Assembly: GCF_022846255.1 (NCBI RefSeq)
Contig: NZ_AP025682.1
Direction: 5' to 3' (one strand)
From: Escherichia coli
GTDB lineage: Bacteria; Pseudomonadota; Gammaproteobacteria; Enterobacterales; Enterobacteriaceae
Length of the DNA: 64,000 nucleotides
The first letter of the stretch is position 1; every line of letters starts with the position of its first letter. The position numbers were made by a program, and so were the translations under genes. The notes under the pieces were generated by a model. It did no database searches. It saw only the letters and a list, made by a program, of their open reading frames with translations, and was not told the DNA's origin. This document shows positions 1,673-24,013 of the stretch, piece by piece.

Positions 1673-1709
1673 TTACGGATTCTCCCTGGTTCAACAGAGA
1701 ATAGTTTGA

Positions 1710-2609
1710 TTAACGCAATAATGGACAATCTGGTGGTAATCGACAACGCAACGCCGCCGGAAGTATTTCAATATGGAAGTTTTGCCCACTCAACGGTTCG
1801 CCATCAAGATTAAAAGTGATTTCGTGTGGGGCTTGTATATCAAACCACGACGAAGCGCCTTCGATAATATTCGGGTTATCTTCGTCAGATTTTAATGTTG
1901 ATACGAGAGCCGGAAGAATTTCATCGCCGGTAAAAATGCGCAGTTGCAGCAAGCCATCGTTAATTAACGCGTTCGGGCACAATTGCTGACCGCCACCGGC
2001 CTGACGCCCGTTACCAATACCAATGACCAGGGCGTCACCTTGCCAGTGAAAGTTTTCACCGCGGATTTCACAACGGTCCGGTTGCAGAGTATCCATGCGC
2101 ATTAAGCCATGAATGATGTAAGAGACGCCACCCAGCGCGGCTTTTAATTTTTCCGGCGTTTCTGTGGTAATACGCGTCCCAAATCCGCCTGTCGCCATAT
2201 TAATAAAACAGGTTTGTTTGTTGACCTGCGCCATATCTATCGCAATGGCGTTACCGGCAATTGCCAGTTTCAGCGCCTTATCCAGTGCCTCAGGAATCCC
2301 TACACTGGTGGCAAAATCATTGGCGGTTCCTAATGGCAAAATTCCCAGCGCGGGTATGTCATCCCCCTCACACTGAATCAACGCCGTAGAAACTTCATTA
2401 ATGGTGCCATCGCCACCACCGGCAATCACCGTTGCGACGCCCAACTTCCGGGCCTCCTCTACATATCGTGCGGCATCGCCTTTCTCCCAGGTGACCCGCA
2501 CATGGATCGTCATTCCTTCCTCACGCAACAGCATAATTGCTTCGCGCAAGGGTAAATTGTCAGTACTTTTGCCATTAAGAATCAGTAAGCTGGCGGGAAA
2601 TTCTGCCAT
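1710..2609 (-). CDS. yegS: lipid kinase YegS (diacylglycerol-kinase-like catalytic domain)
   Basis: 299-aa ORF starting [15 protein letters not shown] with a GGDGT motif; matches my recollection of E. coli YegS. Confidence 0.92.
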
Positions 2610-3023
2610 GATCGTATGTGCCTTTATGATTGGTCTGTAGATAGTGTAGAGCAGAAAAGAAAAGGTAGAGTCAGAACAGGATGAAAGTCGGAGGATAAAA
2701 AGTCAGTTCAAGTATGGAAGATTCAGTGGTTACCACCAGGAGCTTGCAATGGGGACAGCGAATACTAACGGCAGCCACCGATAAATTTCAAAAAAGAGCA
2801 TATACCTAATATTCAACTAAACAGTGGCATCTTCAATATACTATTAAAAATATATTAACCCCCCCATGGGGTTACCCGGAAGGGCATCCGTGTATGTAAT
2901 TCCTACTTATGTAGGAAATGTTGTACAGAACATTTATTATAATCCTATTCAAATATAATAATCATGCCATTATTATATTTAAACACCAGAGCGTGTCGTT
3001 GGTATTTAATGGGGGAAGGTAAG

Positions 3024-18971: not shown

Positions 18972-19729
18972 GCTGGCGTCTGGTCTATGCATCAACCGTT
19001 GGAACGTCGCACATCAGCGCGGACTTGCCTTGCCAGGATGCCTGCCAGATGCAGGTTGCCTGGTTAAATGACCAGCAGCCATTATTGTCGGTATTTGTCG
19101 CTGATGGCGCAGGCAGTGTCTCGCAGGGTGGCGAAGGTGCGATGCTCGCCGTCAATGAAGCGATGGCTTATATGTCGCAAAAAGTGCAGGGCGGGGAATT
19201 GGGGCTTAATGATGTCCTCGCAACGGACATTGTGCTGACCATTCGTCAGCGACTTTTTGCCGAGGCGGAAGCCAAAGAATTAGCGGTTCGCGATTTTGCC
19301 TGCACGTTTTTGGGATTGATTTCATCAGCTAATGGCACCTTGATTATGCAGATTGGCGATGGCGGCGTGGTGGTAGATTTGGGTCACGGTTTGCAACTGC
19401 CGCTCACGCCGATGGTGGGGGAATATGCCAATATGACGCACTTCATTACCGATGACGATGCTGTTTCCAGACTGGAAACTTACACCAGTACTGAGCGTGC
19501 GCATAAAGTTGCAGCATTTACGGATGGTATTCAGCGACTGGCGTTAAATATGCTGGATAATTCTCCGCATGTGCCTTTCTTTACCCCGTTTTTCAATGGA
19601 CTGGCGTCAGCAACGCAGGAACAACTCGATTTATTACCTGAATTGTTAAAGCAGTTTTTGTCCAGCCCGACGGTAAACGAGCGTACCGATGATGATAAAA
19701 CGTTGGCACTGGCGCTGTGGTTACCATGA
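18968..19729 (+). CDS. yegK: PP2C-family Ser/Thr protein phosphatase YegK (PphC)
   Basis: 253 aa; GTG start overlaps the yegL stop (GTGA); PP2C-like motifs (FVADGAGS..., IGDGG). Confidence 0.88.
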
Positions 19730-21666
19730 AACCCACTTTATATACTGCTACTGGTGAGTGCGTTACGCCTGGCCGTGAACTGGGCAAAGGCGGTGAAGGT
19801 GCGGTTTATGATATCGAGGAGTTTGCCGATAGCGTCGCCAAGATTTATCACACGCCGCCACCCGCCTTAAAACAGGACAAACTTGCCTTTATGGCTGCGA
19901 CAGCTGACGCGCAGTTGTTGAATTATGTCGCCTGGCCGCAGGCAACGCTTCACGGTGGACGAGGCGGAAAAGTTATCGGTTTTATGATGCCAAAAGTTTC
20001 TGGTAAAGAACCGATTCATATGATCTATAGCCCGGCACATCGTCGCCAGAGTTACCCTCATTGTGCGTGGGATTTTCTACTCTATGTTGCGCGCAATATT
20101 GCTTCATCTTTTGCTACTGTTCATGAGCACGGGCACGTCGTGGGTGACGTAAACCAGAACAGCTTTATGGTAGGTCGCGACAGCAAAGTGGTGTTGATTG
20201 ATAGCGACTCCTTTCAGATTAATGCCAATGGTACACTGCATTTATGCGAAGTCGGCGTGTCGCATTTTACGCCGCCAGAGCTGCAAACCATGCCATCATT
20301 TGTCGGCTTTGAACGCACAGAAAATCACGATAATTTTGGCCTTGCGTTGCTGATATTTCACATCTTGTTTGGTGGGCGGCATCCTTATTCCGGTGTACCG
20401 CTTATCTCTGATGCGGGTAATGCGCTGGAGACGGATATTGCCCATTTCCGTTATGCCTACGCGTCAGATAATCAGCGACGTGGTTTAAAACCGCCGCCAC
20501 GATCGATTCCGCTGTCGATGTTACCGGGCGATGTTGAAGCCATGTTTCAGCAGGCATTCACGGAAAGTGGCGTGGCAACCGGGCGTCCGACGGCAAAAGC
20601 GTGGGTAGCGGCACTTGATTTACTACGCCAACAGTTAAAGAAATGTACCGTTTCGGCAATGCATGTTTACCCCGCTCATTTGACTGACTGCCCGTGGTGT
20701 GCGCTGGATAATCAAGGCGTTATCTATTTTATTGATCTCGGCGAAGAGGTCATTACCACCGGCGGTGATTTTGTGCTGGCGAGAGTCTGGGCGATGGTGA
20801 TGGCGTCAGTAGCACCGCCAGCATTGCAATTACCATTACCCGATCATTTCCAACCGACTGGCAGGCCGCTTCCTTTAGGCCTGTTAAGGCGTGAATACAT
20901 CATTCTGATTGAGATCGCACTGTCAGCGTTATCGCTGCTGCTTTGCGGCCTTCAGACAGAACCACGTTATATTATTTTGGTTCCTGTGCTGTCGGCTATC
21001 TGGATTATTGGCAGCCTGACAAGCAAAGCGTACAAAGCAGAAATCCAGCAACGCCGTGAGGCGTTTAATCGTGCGAAAATGGACTATGACCATTTAGTCA
21101 GCCAGATCCAACAGTTGGGCGGGCTGGAAGGTTTTATCGCCAAACGGACGATGCTCGAAAAAATGAAGGACGAAATTCTTGGGTTACCGGAAGAAGAAAA
21201 GCGCGATCTGGCAGCACTTCAGGACACCGCAAGGGAACGGCAGAAGCAGAAGTTTCTGGAGGGATTTTTTATTGATGTTGCCTCTATTCCCGGCGTTGGC
21301 CCTGCGCGTAAAGCGGCGTTACGGTCCTTTGGTATTGAAACAGCAGCGGATGTTACCCGACGGAGCGTTAAGCAAGTGAAAGGTTTTGGTGATCATCTGA
21401 CCCAGGCGGTTATCGACTGGAAAGCGAGCTGTGAACGCCGTTTTTTGTTCAGGCCGAACGAAGCGGTAACGCCTGCAGACAGACAAGCGGTAATGGCAAA
21501 AATGGCCGCCAAACGACATCGGCTGGAATCGGCGCTGACTGTCGGTGCGACAGAGTTGCAGCGATTCCGCCTTCATGCTCCAGCACGGACCATGCCGTTG
21601 ATGGAACCGCTACGTCAGGCGGCAGAAAAACTGGCTCAGGCGCAGGCTGATTTAAGCCGTTGCTGA
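19726..21666 (+). CDS. yegI: eukaryotic-like Ser/Thr protein kinase YegI with C-terminal transmembrane, coiled-coil and helix-hairpin-helix regions
   Basis: ATG at 19726 overlaps the yegK stop (ATGA). Gly-rich loop LGKGGEGAVY, a VAIK-like lysine (VAKIY) and a catalytic-loop-like VGDVNQNS; predicted TM helices (IILIEIALSALSLLLCGL, ILVPVLSAIWIIGSL) and an HhH-like IPGVGPARKAALRSFGI. Confidence 0.88.
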   Translation: MKPTLYTATGECVTPGRELGKGGEGAVYDIEEFADSVAKIYHTPPPALKQDKLAFMAATADAQLLNYVAWPQATLHGGRGGKVIGFMMPKVSGKEPIHMIYSPAHRRQSYPHCAWDFLLYVARNIASSFATVHEHGHVVGDVNQNSFMVGRDSKVVLIDSDSFQINANGTLHLCEVGVSHFTPPELQTMPSFVGFERTENHDNFGLALLIFHILFGGRHPYSGVPLISDAGNALETDIAHFRYAYASDNQRRGLKPPPRSIPLSMLPGDVEAMFQQAFTESGVATGRPTAKAWVAALDLLRQQLKKCTVSAMHVYPAHLTDCPWCALDNQGVIYFIDLGEEVITTGGDFVLARVWAMVMASVAPPALQLPLPDHFQPTGRPLPLGLLRREYIILIEIALSALSLLLCGLQTEPRYIILVPVLSAIWIIGSLTSKAYKAEIQQRREAFNRAKMDYDHLVSQIQQLGGLEGFIAKRTMLEKMKDEILGLPEEEKRDLAALQDTARERQKQKFLEGFFIDVASIPGVGPARKAALRSFGIETAADVTRRSVKQVKGFGDHLTQAVIDWKASCERRFLFRPNEAVTPADRQAVMAKMAAKRHRLESALTVGATELQRFRLHAPARTMPLMEPLRQAAEKLAQAQADLSRC

Positions 21667-21678
21667 GCCAGTTTTCAA

Positions 21679-23031
21679 TTAACGAAACACCACTTCCGCC
21701 CAGCGTGCCAGCCCGGCGGTGACGGAGCCAAAGTCATCGCCACCTGCAATCGGAATGCCCGGCAACTGTTCTGTCAGCGCTTTTTTAATCAGCGGTGAAC
21801 GGGCGCTACCGCCGGTCAGATAGATAACATCCGGTTTTTCCTGGGCGTTATCCAGCGCCAGTTGCACCTGTTCCAGAATCCGCGCCAGTGGCTGGTTGAG
21901 GGCGCTTTCCAGCCCTTGCTGGCTAATCAGCGTAGCCAGTTCATCGCTGATAAACGGCAGTGAGGCGCGGGTTTCCGCTACGCTTGAAAGCGCAATTTTG
22001 CTCTCTTCTGCGCTACGTACCAGGCGATAGCTTAAACGCTGACGCCAGACTTTCTGTAACAGGGCCACTTTTTCCGGTTCGCGGGCATCGCGTACCAGAT
22101 CGTTAAGCAGACGACCGTTGGCACTACTGTAGAAATCACTTTGCGCAGGTACGTCGTTGATGGCAACCGCATTCCACCACGGCAGAATCGGCAGGGCGAT
22201 GCCTTTTTCGGTTTCGCCACCCATGCCCAGTAACGGCATCAGGTTCTTAAACGCCAGTGCGATATCCAGATCGTTACCACCAATACGGCAACCACTGTGA
22301 CCCAGCAGGCTGGCTTCACGATCGAGACGCGAACGCCACTGCGGCCCCATCAGCAGCAATGAACAGTCAGTCGTACCACCGCCGATATCCACCACCAGCA
22401 CCCGTTTTTCTTCCTGCAAGGTGGCTTCGTAATCCAGCCCAGCCGCCACCGGCTCGTACTGGAATACCACGTCCTTAAACCCGGCACGCTTCGCTGCGCG
22501 CTCCAGAATCCCTTGTGCCTGGGCGTTTGCTTCATCGCCGCCCAGCCCCTGGAAGTTGATCGGGCGACCAATCACCGCCTGGGTAATTGCCTCCGGCAAT
22601 TGCGCCTGCGCCTGCTGGCGAATGTGCAACATCATTGCGCAGACCAGATCCTCAAACAGCGCTACCTGCTGCGGTTTTAAGCCGCTGGCACCGAGGAACG
22701 ATTTTGGTGATTTCACAAACCACACTTCTTCTGGATCATCAATGTACTGTGCCAGTGAGGAAAGACCGAACTGCACGCTTTTCGCCGTAACATCGATATC
22801 TTCTTCGCGGTTATAACGAATCGCCCGACGCAGCAGCGCCTGCGTTTCATCGTCGTCTGCCGGAACATCATGATAGCGGTACAGCCATTCGCTTACCGCT
22901 TCACGCGTTGGCGCGCAAAGCATTGAAGGCAGCAGCGTGCTGTCGTTTTCCATTTTCAGTAATTGCGGCTTACCGTCGCGCATGACCGCCACTGAACAGT
23001 TTGCTGTACCGTAATCAAAACCAATAAACAC
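21679..23031 (-). CDS. yegD: Hsp70/actin-fold ATPase family protein YegD
   Basis: 450 aa from GTG at 23031 (MFIGFDYGTANCSVAVM...), DnaK-like phosphate-binding motifs; convergent with yegI. The supplied ORF adds 21 N-terminal residues that I reject. Confidence 0.88.
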   Translation of the reverse strand: MFIGFDYGTANCSVAVMRDGKPQLLKMENDSTLLPSMLCAPTREAVSEWLYRYHDVPADDDETQALLRRAIRYNREEDIDVTAKSVQFGLSSLAQYIDDPEEVWFVKSPKSFLGASGLKPQQVALFEDLVCAMMLHIRQQAQAQLPEAITQAVIGRPINFQGLGGDEANAQAQGILERAAKRAGFKDVVFQYEPVAAGLDYEATLQEEKRVLVVDIGGGTTDCSLLLMGPQWRSRLDREASLLGHSGCRIGGNDLDIALAFKNLMPLLGMGGETEKGIALPILPWWNAVAINDVPAQSDFYSSANGRLLNDLVRDAREPEKVALLQKVWRQRLSYRLVRSAEESKIALSSVAETRASLPFISDELATLISQQGLESALNQPLARILEQVQLALDNAQEKPDVIYLTGGSARSPLIKKALTEQLPGIPIAGGDDFGSVTAGLARWAEVVFR

Positions 23032-23104
23032 GAAATAATCCCCATGCCGGTGAAGAAGGGGCGAGACTTTAGCGAAATGTTGCCGTCGCGACAACCGGAA
23101 TATG

Positions 23105-23117
23105 AAAGCAAAGCGTA
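23105..23117 (+). promoter_or_regulatory. putative Ada box in the alkA promoter (AAAGCAAAGCGTA)
   Basis: Resembles the Ada recognition sequence (AAAGCGCA-type) about 50 bp upstream of the alkA start; alkA is a known Ada regulon member. Confidence 0.35.
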
Positions 23118-23164
23118 GCGTCTGAATAACGTTTATGCTGAAAGCGGATTAAAAAGGAGATGCG

Positions 23165-24013
23165 ATGTATACCCTGAACTGGCAGCCGCCATATGACTGG
23201 TCGTGGATGTTGGGATTTCTCGCCGCCCGTGCGGTGAGCGGTGTGGAAACGGTTGCGGACGATTATTATGCCCGTAGTCTGGCGATGGGCGAATATCGCG
23301 GCGTGGTGACTGCTATTCCGGATATAGCCAGCCATACTCTGCACATAAATTTAAGTGCAGGTTTAGAACCTGTTGCCGCTGAGTGTCTGGCGAAAATGAG
23401 CCGCCTGTTTGATTTGCAATGTAACCCGCAGATTGTTAACGGTGCGTTGGGCAAGTTAGGCGCGGCGCGGCCCGGATTGCGTTTACCCGGCAGTGTTGAT
23501 GCTTTTGAGCAGGGCGTGCGGGCGATTTTAGGCCAACTGGTGAGCGTGGCGATGGCGGCAAAATTGACCGCCAGAGTGGCACAGCTTTATGGCGAAAGGC
23601 TGGATGATTTTCCGGATTATGTCTGCTTCCCCACGCCTCAGCGGCTGGCAGCAGCAGATCCGCAGGCATTAAAAGCGTTAGGTATGCCGTTGAAACGGGC
23701 AGAGGCGCTGATTCATCTGGCAAATGCGGCGCTGGAGGGCACCTTACCAATGACAATACCGGGCGATGTGGAGCAGGCGATGAAAACGCTGCAAACTTTT
23801 CCGGGTATCGGGCGCTGGACGGCGAATTATTTCGCCTTGCGCGGCTGGCAGGCGAAAGATGTTTTCCTGCCGGATGATTATCTGATTAAACAGCGATTTC
23901 CGGGAATGACACCGGCACAAATCCGCCGTTATGCCGAACGCTGGAAGCCCTTGCGTTCTTATGCGCTGTTGCATATCTGGTATACGGAAGGCTGGCAACC
24001 AGACGAAGCATGA
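23165..24013 (+). CDS. alkA: 3-methyladenine DNA glycosylase II
   Basis: 282 aa, MYTLNWQPPYDWSWMLGFLAARAV...; HhH-GPD glycosylase; matches AlkA. Confidence 0.95.
   Translation: MYTLNWQPPYDWSWMLGFLAARAVSGVETVADDYYARSLAMGEYRGVVTAIPDIASHTLHINLSAGLEPVAAECLAKMSRLFDLQCNPQIVNGALGKLGAARPGLRLPGSVDAFEQGVRAILGQLVSVAMAAKLTARVAQLYGERLDDFPDYVCFPTPQRLAAADPQALKALGMPLKRAEALIHLANAALEGTLPMTIPGDVEQAMKTLQTFPGIGRWTANYFALRGWQAKDVFLPDDYLIKQRFPGMTPAQIRRYAERWKPLRSYALLHIWYTEGWQPDEA

Follow-up and report, generated by a model that had tools for sequence, protein, structure and literature searches.

The window analysed here is a stretch of 64,000 nucleotides (64 kb) of Escherichia coli DNA, in which the genes yegI (plus strand), yegD (minus), alkA (plus) and dgcE (minus) surround the site of interest. 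A sequence-only reading of this DNA had described the yegD and alkA starts as divergent and about 130 bp apart, and this proved correct: the intergenic region (23032-23164) measures 133 bp, it has the same length in K-12 MG1655, and the two sequences differ at four positions (129/133 identical). The gene yegI occupies 19717-21666 of the window; in K-12, b2070-b2072 (yegI, yegJ and pphC) are located just past yegD. ExcludonFinder lists overlaps for dgcE-alkA and for yegD-yegI, and an alkA-yegD overlap is not among them, which agrees with the non-overlapping 5' ends of both transcripts (see below).

Of 5,426 complete E. coli genomes, 5,411 match the 801 bases around the site, at 95-99.6% identity, and in E. 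coli records that are 97-99.6% identical the genes under this match carry the RefSeq names yegD and alkA. The closest relatives of the window are E. coli AR_0077 (99.6% over 801 nt) and Escherichia sp. E1V33 (YegD 99% identical), while the other E. coli records matching the 801 nt are, with two exceptions, at 95-99% identity. Since nearly all matching E. coli records are only 95-99% identical, the window seems to come from a rarely sampled Escherichia lineage.

A scan with YegD, restricted to one genome per species, recovered 80 loci from Enterobacteriaceae (Escherichia, Citrobacter, Salmonella, Klebsiella, Raoultella, Kosakonia, Kluyvera, Lelliottia, Buttiauxella and others). The gene alkA is divergent and adjacent to yegD in 76 of them, mostly at a distance of 132-137 bp. 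We aligned 77 intergenic regions, and the conservation values given here are mean identities to the window. For comparison, third codon positions over the first 40 codons have values of 0.61 in yegD and 0.51 in alkA; neutral-like sites fall between 0.35 and 0.61, and the segments between conserved elements between 0.35 and 0.56. The features of the locus and their conservation are collected in Table 1.

Table 1. Features of the yegD/alkA locus, with positions in the window and mean identity to the window over 77 species
Feature	Position	Strand	Mean identity	Basis or remark
yegD CDS, Hsp70/actin-like ATPase	21679..23031	-		GTG start at 23031; ORF list; 450-aa protein; RefSeq names in near-identical records
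yegD 5' leader, 27 nt	23032..23058	-		start at 23058 (+/-1), SMRT-Cappable-seq
nearly invariant yegD leader block, mRNA +1 to +20, CCCUUCUUCACCGGCAUGGGGA	23039..23058	-	0.95	
yegD Shine-Dalgarno GGGGA, weak	23043-23039	-		inside leader block
yegD -10 TAAAGT	23066..23071	-	1.00	top sigma-70 weight-matrix match on strand, 11.8 bits
yegD promoter spacer			0.45	17 nt, variable
yegD -35 TTGTCG	23089..23094	-	0.88	17-nt spacer to -10
Ada-binding site of alkA promoter	23099..23111	+		pattern match; A/B-box definition PMC4437013, PMC6505713
A box AAT	23099-23101	+	0.96	
Ada-site 6-nt spacer ATGAAA		+	0.90	
B box GCAA	23108-23111	+	0.97	
historical 'Ada box' AAAGCAAAGCGTA	23105..23117	+		sequence; K-12 orthologue
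3' half of historical box, with C/T site	23112-23117	+	0.56	not conserved, near neutral
alkA -35 position, AAGCGT	23111..23116	+		very poor TTGACA match; one base shared with B box
alkA promoter spacer			0.46	
alkA -10 TATGCT	23134..23139	+	0.92	-10 box of Mendoza-Vargas 2009 for known promoter alkAp
alkA transcription start, G	23146	+		Kim 2012, Mendoza-Vargas 2009
alkA leader, 19 nt			0.43	
alkA Shine-Dalgarno AGGAG	23155..23159	+	0.81	read from sequence
alkA CDS, 3-methyladenine DNA glycosylase II, 282 aa	23165..24013	+		ATG at 23165; ORF list; RefSeq names in near-identical records

The Ada site of the alkA promoter

Two independent genome-wide datasets agree in placing the transcription start of alkA 19 nt upstream of its ATG. 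Kim 2012 lists it at 2145583(-), with a 5'UTR of 19 nt and a promoter string ending in ...TATGCTGAAAGCG / ...TTTATGCTGAAAGCG, and Mendoza-Vargas 2009 gives alkA -19 for the known promoter alkAp, with the -10 box TTTATGCT. Ada recognises an A box (AAT) and, after a gap of 6 nt, a B box (GCAA), as defined by He et al. 2005 (cited through PMC4437013 and PMC6505713), and both boxes act as its recognition elements at ada, alkA and aidB (PMC4437013, PMC6505713); an older Ada-box consensus, AAANNAAAGCGCA, is cited in PMC6505713. The only match to AAT-N6-GCAA within the intergenic region is AATATGAAAGCAA at 23099-23111 on the alkA strand, and the same pattern search found none on the yegD strand of this region. 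Because the alkA start maps 19 nt 5' of the ATG in both datasets, the match spans -47 to -35, its B box being nearer to the start than its A box. The resemblance of 23105-23117 to the Ada binding sequence, which had been noticed from the letters of the DNA, is therefore genuine, AAAGCAAAGCGTA being the orthologue of the K-12 alkA Ada box, and comparison with the mapped alkA promoter leaves the site where it had been proposed and not elsewhere.

The Ada-box motif by itself is not above chance. There are 15 copies of AATNNNNNNGCAA in the 64-kb window versus 18.2 expected, and 3 copies of the 13-mer Ada box with at most two mismatches versus 3.5 expected; genome-wide, Booth et al. found the A/B-box motif equally common upstream of unresponsive and responsive genes (PMC6505713). 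One two-mismatch look-alike, CAAGCAAAGCGTA at 21020-21032, lies in the yegI coding sequence and fits these chance numbers. Such a frequency is what would be expected if the match upstream of alkA were also a look-alike devoid of function, but this explanation is so improbable that we consider it refuted by conservation and mapping: the copy at 23099-23111 belongs to the orthologue of a characterised K-12 promoter, it occupies the correct position with respect to the mapped alkA start, and it is conserved at 0.90-0.97 across genera with a fixed spacing to the alkA -10. It is for these reasons (orthology, position and conservation) that we take this copy to be real.

The orthologous K-12 alkAp shares with the window the length of the region, the AAT-N6-GCAA motif, the -10 TATGCT, the start 19 nt before the ATG and the divergent yegD. 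The K-12 box, AAAGCAAAGCGCA, differs from AAAGCAAAGCGTA by a single C->T change at 23116 (-30 of alkA), in the 3' half of the historical box, with C in K-12 and T in the window, and the three further substitutions are all outside mapped elements. Of 5413 E. coli records, 2809 contain the exact 61-mer of the window (23086-23146) and 1504 that of K-12; T at 23116, far from being peculiar to this strain, is the allele found most often in E. coli. The polymorphism looks neutral, since the position also differs among genera. The strict AAT-N6-GCAA motif is kept in 68 of the 77 species, and the alignment shows that only this part of the historical Ada box is under selection. The Ada site of the window is the orthologue of the characterised K-12 alkA site, in a promoter that differs from that of K-12 by one base at a non-conserved position.

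The alkA core promoter is weak. With a simple sigma-70 matrix, the mapped promoter scores 1.3 bits, versus a median of 5.8 bits for the best match per 161-nt window, which is consistent with activator dependence. RNA polymerase alone binds alkA very weakly, and alpha-subunit binding there requires Ada (2014 review, PMC4437013); MNNG strongly induces alkA, and both the binding of Ada and ada-dependent induction are known for the K-12 gene (PMC4437013, PMC6505713). In the window, Ada methylated at Cys38, with the methyl group taken from DNA, would bind 23099-23111 and recruit RNA polymerase, and alkA transcription would then begin at 23146. Binding of Cys38-methylated Ada to the A and B boxes with recruitment of the polymerase is an established mechanism.

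The same A box, 6-nt spacing, B box and orientation to the activated gene are found at the K-12 ada promoter (AAT-TAAAGC-GCAA). The two promoters differ in that the B box of ada lies, by inspection, 2 nt upstream of a TTG-containing hexamer resembling a -35, whereas that of alkA overlaps the -35 position; contacts of the polymerase have been reported to differ between them (PMC4437013). They also differ in their neighbourhood, since the ada promoter region adjoins the end of the co-directional upstream gene ftp, whereas the neighbour of alkA is divergent.

The Ada site of the alkA promoter is already known, so that its presence here is an ordinary finding that confirms the annotation. It has figured in textbook accounts of the E. 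coli adaptive response since the 1980s. The present analysis adds a base-level map of the 133-bp region that combines the published starts of both genes with a footprint from 77 species. In the literature examined, we did not find a description of the yegD promoter at the base level, of selection on AAT-N6-GCAA only, or of how strongly the first 20 nt of the yegD mRNA are conserved.

The yegD promoter and its conserved leader

A transcription start of b2069 (yegD) has been reported by SMRT-Cappable-seq at NC_000913.3 2147647 on the forward strand (PMC6131387 supplement). We converted coordinates as window = 2170705 - K-12 coordinate, and the conversion was checked with dgcE, whose start in the SMRT-Cappable-seq table falls within 1 nt of that of Kim et al. 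once converted. The mapped yegD start (23058) is 8 nt downstream of the last base of the -10. The SMRT-Cappable-seq table has no b2068 (alkA) row between those of b2067 and b2069 (PMC6131387), and Kim et al., working with exponential cells, listed the alkA start and not that of yegD; there is no entry for a yegD start in either the Kim 2012 or the Mendoza-Vargas 2009 dataset.

The score of the yegD promoter (11.8 bits) is above the 95th percentile of the best match per 161-nt window along the 64 kb (9.9 bits). Among the 77 species, 70 have TTGnnn-17-TAAAGT as the top promoter of the yegD strand, and 75 have a TTG-type -35 together with TAAAGT at the position of the yegD promoter. The gene yegD has its own strong and probably self-sufficient sigma-70 promoter, TTGTCG-17-TAAAGT. 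Another candidate that overlaps the A box, TTCAGA-16-CATATT (6.7 bits), was discarded for the lack of conservation of its -35 region and because it is TTGTCG-17-TAAAGT that fits the published start. Sigma-32, sigma-54, sigma-28 and sigma-E were also considered for the conserved yegD block, by eye against their consensus sequences, and none of them fit both elements and spacing. Regarding the regulation of the gene, stationary-phase cells of an EDL933 rpoS mutant have been found to express yegD 14-fold higher (PMC2907692), and RyhB has been reported as its translational activator (PMC4666370).

The conservation upstream of yegD extends into the transcript. The first 20 nt of the mRNA (23039-23058) form a block that exceeds even codon positions 1 and 2 of yegD in conservation. 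A search of the leader against Rfam gave no match even at E = 10; its folding energy is no better than that of shuffled sequences (z = 0.67), with no stable fold, and no second copy of the block was found elsewhere in E. coli genomes, where it is single copy. Pairing of RyhB with the leader was examined and rejected, since the whole-molecule duplex predicted is no better than those obtained with shuffled leaders, and the longest contiguous complementarity (8 nt) lies over the start codon, outside the conserved block. With no convincing pairing between RyhB and the leader, the reported activation of yegD by this RNA is not explained here. The block could contain an anti-Shine-Dalgarno pyrimidine tract (CCCCUUCUUCACC versus GGGGA) that masks the GGGGA, or it could be an operator at +1 to +20. 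Reading the leader by eye, we also noticed an out-of-frame ATG at 23045 (minus strand) that starts a 29-codon ORF (22956-23045) overlapping the yegD start. It is probably not a conserved upstream ORF because the ATG is absent in a few species (L007-L009, L049).

Spacing and natural rearrangements around the Ada site

The B box and the alkA -10 keep a practically fixed distance: of 71 species, 69 have 22 nt and two have 21 nt. On the other side, the yegD -10 is separated from the A box by 27 nt in 58 species, by 28 nt in 5 and by 26 nt in 2; this separation reaches 43 nt in Yokenella by means of a 16-bp insertion and drops to 9 nt in five Enterobacter-like genomes that have an 18-bp deletion. 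In 57 of 68 species the yegD -35 and the A box are 4 bp apart, which could indicate some constraint linking both elements or may merely reflect the rarity of indels in such a short segment.

Several genomes have lost one of the components of the region. In one locus (L038) alkA is absent, and the yegD block and -10 are retained, with TTGCAG at the -35 position. In two Buttiauxella genomes (L077 and L080) the Ada box has been deleted and the yegD promoter retained. In Enterobacter sp. Bisph1 (L062), an A+T-rich insertion of ~1.06 kb (about 1808-3001 of that locus) splits the Ada site; the yegD promoter is kept, including its -35, and the alkA side has GAT-N6-GCAA instead of AAT-N6-GCAA. Considering the spacing data and these natural rearrangements (L038, L077, L080 and L062), the Ada site is held at a rigid distance from the alkA promoter, its coupling to that of yegD is loose, and the yegD promoter does not depend on the site. 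We favour, with a probability of roughly 80%, the reading in which the sequence noticed at 23105-23117 serves the alkA promoter as its Ada operator, so that the site belongs to alkA and yegD is transcribed with no need of Ada.

Other rearrangements concern the fate of alkA or of the control region itself. The Buttiauxella genomes L077, L079 and L080, whose intergenic regions measure 75-111 bp, have either lost the Ada box and the alkA -10 region or no longer hold them in recognisable form; alkA itself is intact and may have lost Ada control in them. In Trabulsiella guamensis (L064), an A+T-rich insertion of ~1.2 kb with small hydrophobic ORFs (about 1676-3001) is located between alkA and yegD. 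A 64-bp segment holding the yegD -10 and -35 and the Ada site is directly duplicated on either side of this insertion, and therefore a copy of the control region stays with each gene. Finally, the 18-bp deletion of the five Enterobacter-like genomes (L026, L030, L032, L035 and L049) removes the usual yegD -35, and the B box takes its position (TTGCTT-16-TAAAGT); in these genomes the A box is altered to GAT or ATT, and binding of Ada would directly overlap the yegD -35.

Possible effects of Ada on yegD

The yegD and alkA promoters are back to back, and their start sites are separated by 88 bp; the 16 bp between their -35 positions are filled by the Ada site. Counted from the yegD start, the A box occupies -41 to -43 and the B box -50 to -53, so the orientation is inverted, with the A box proximal. 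The sequence-only reading had suggested that the alkylation response may also influence the Hsp70-like yegD, and this part of it is unsupported: the gene has its own conserved sigma-70 promoter, the site is inverted, its spacing to the promoter is variable, the promoter survives the loss of the box or of alkA, and yegD does not appear in the lists of genes responding to MMS. Of the features to be expected in a member of the Ada regulon, yegD lacks the activating orientation (B box proximal), a conserved spacing and the co-retention of site and promoter.

The array evidence is weak and comes from the time course of Baek et al. 2009, an old microarray, in which yegD is in none of the six wild-type W3110 up or down lists after MMS, and alkA appears only at the last time point, in the up list of 3.9 h. 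The text of the MNNG tiling-array paper of Booth et al., whose full gene list is separate, does not mention yegD. A literature search found no paper naming yegD together with alkA and Ada.

A single Ada site between two divergent -35 regions, strongly conserved with its 6-nt spacer included, could suggest that methylated Ada activates both genes from the shared site and that YegD is a hidden member of the Ada regulon. This seems very unlikely, since the B box is proximal at both ada and alkA and it is the A box that faces yegD, whose promoter has a good -35, a 17-nt spacer and a start that was mapped without induction. The lack of a conserved spacing to the yegD promoter, the persistence of this promoter in genomes without the box and the absence of yegD from the MMS up lists also stand against it. 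Two outward promoters in a short shared region, with one activator site between their -35 elements, are likewise the layout of the araC/araBAD, malE/malK and ilvY/ilvC class. In these pairs the regulator controls both sides. Unlike them, in alkA/yegD the comparative spacing, the orientation and the array data tie the Ada site to one side.

The two genes might also be coupled through DNA topology, if induced transcription of alkA sent negative supercoils upstream and these aided the opening of the yegD promoter, whose discriminator (CTCGCCC) is G+C rich. The divergent arrangement with close starts and the G+C-rich segment between the yegD -10 and +1 would suit such an effect. Coupling by supercoiling is known at other divergent pairs such as ilvY/ilvC. 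Here, we give it only a very faint chance; yegD is not in the up lists after MMS.

If Ada or alkA has any effect on yegD, mild interference is likelier than co-activation because Ada and the polymerase bound at alkA would reach ~23091 and overlap the yegD -35 (23089-23094), and crowding near this element would lower, not raise, the transcription of yegD. In such a scenario, Ada and the polymerase recruited to alkA would occupy ~23091-23166 and hinder the yegD polymerase through its alpha C-terminal domains or sigma region 4, so that yegD would be repressed under alkylation stress. This is physically plausible given the mere 88 bp that separate the start sites and the position of the Ada site, which occupies -41 to -53 of yegD and is 4 bp from its -35. 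It is also favoured by the Ada requirement for alpha-subunit binding at alkA (PMC4437013) and by the five Enterobacter-like genomes in which the 18-bp deletion puts the B box at the yegD -35. On the other hand, the genes listed as down after MMS do not include yegD (Baek et al. 2009). That the site can be anywhere from 9 to 43 nt away from the yegD promoter with neither element lost also speaks against interference. Moreover, the tether of the alpha C-terminal domains is flexible, and promoters placed back to back at such a distance often fire independently. On balance, repression of yegD by this route seems quite improbable. That the presence of Ada in the 16-bp gap and the firing of alkA measurably change yegD transcription in some way, most likely downwards through crowding of the yegD -35 and the region upstream of it, is unlikely, and for any physiologically meaningful effect of Ada or alkA on yegD we would allow a small chance at most, the greater part of it for interference.

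Were such modulation to occur, YegD, a poorly understood Hsp70 paralogue, and perhaps the neighbouring yegI/pphC kinase-phosphatase cluster, would be linked to the adaptive response to alkylation, which would be a modest advance. In the MMS array of Baek et al., b2070, b2071 and b2072 (yegI, yegJ and pphC) are in the 3.9-h up list with alkA. This list comprises many hundreds of genes, and hence the late induction of these three may be a general late effect.
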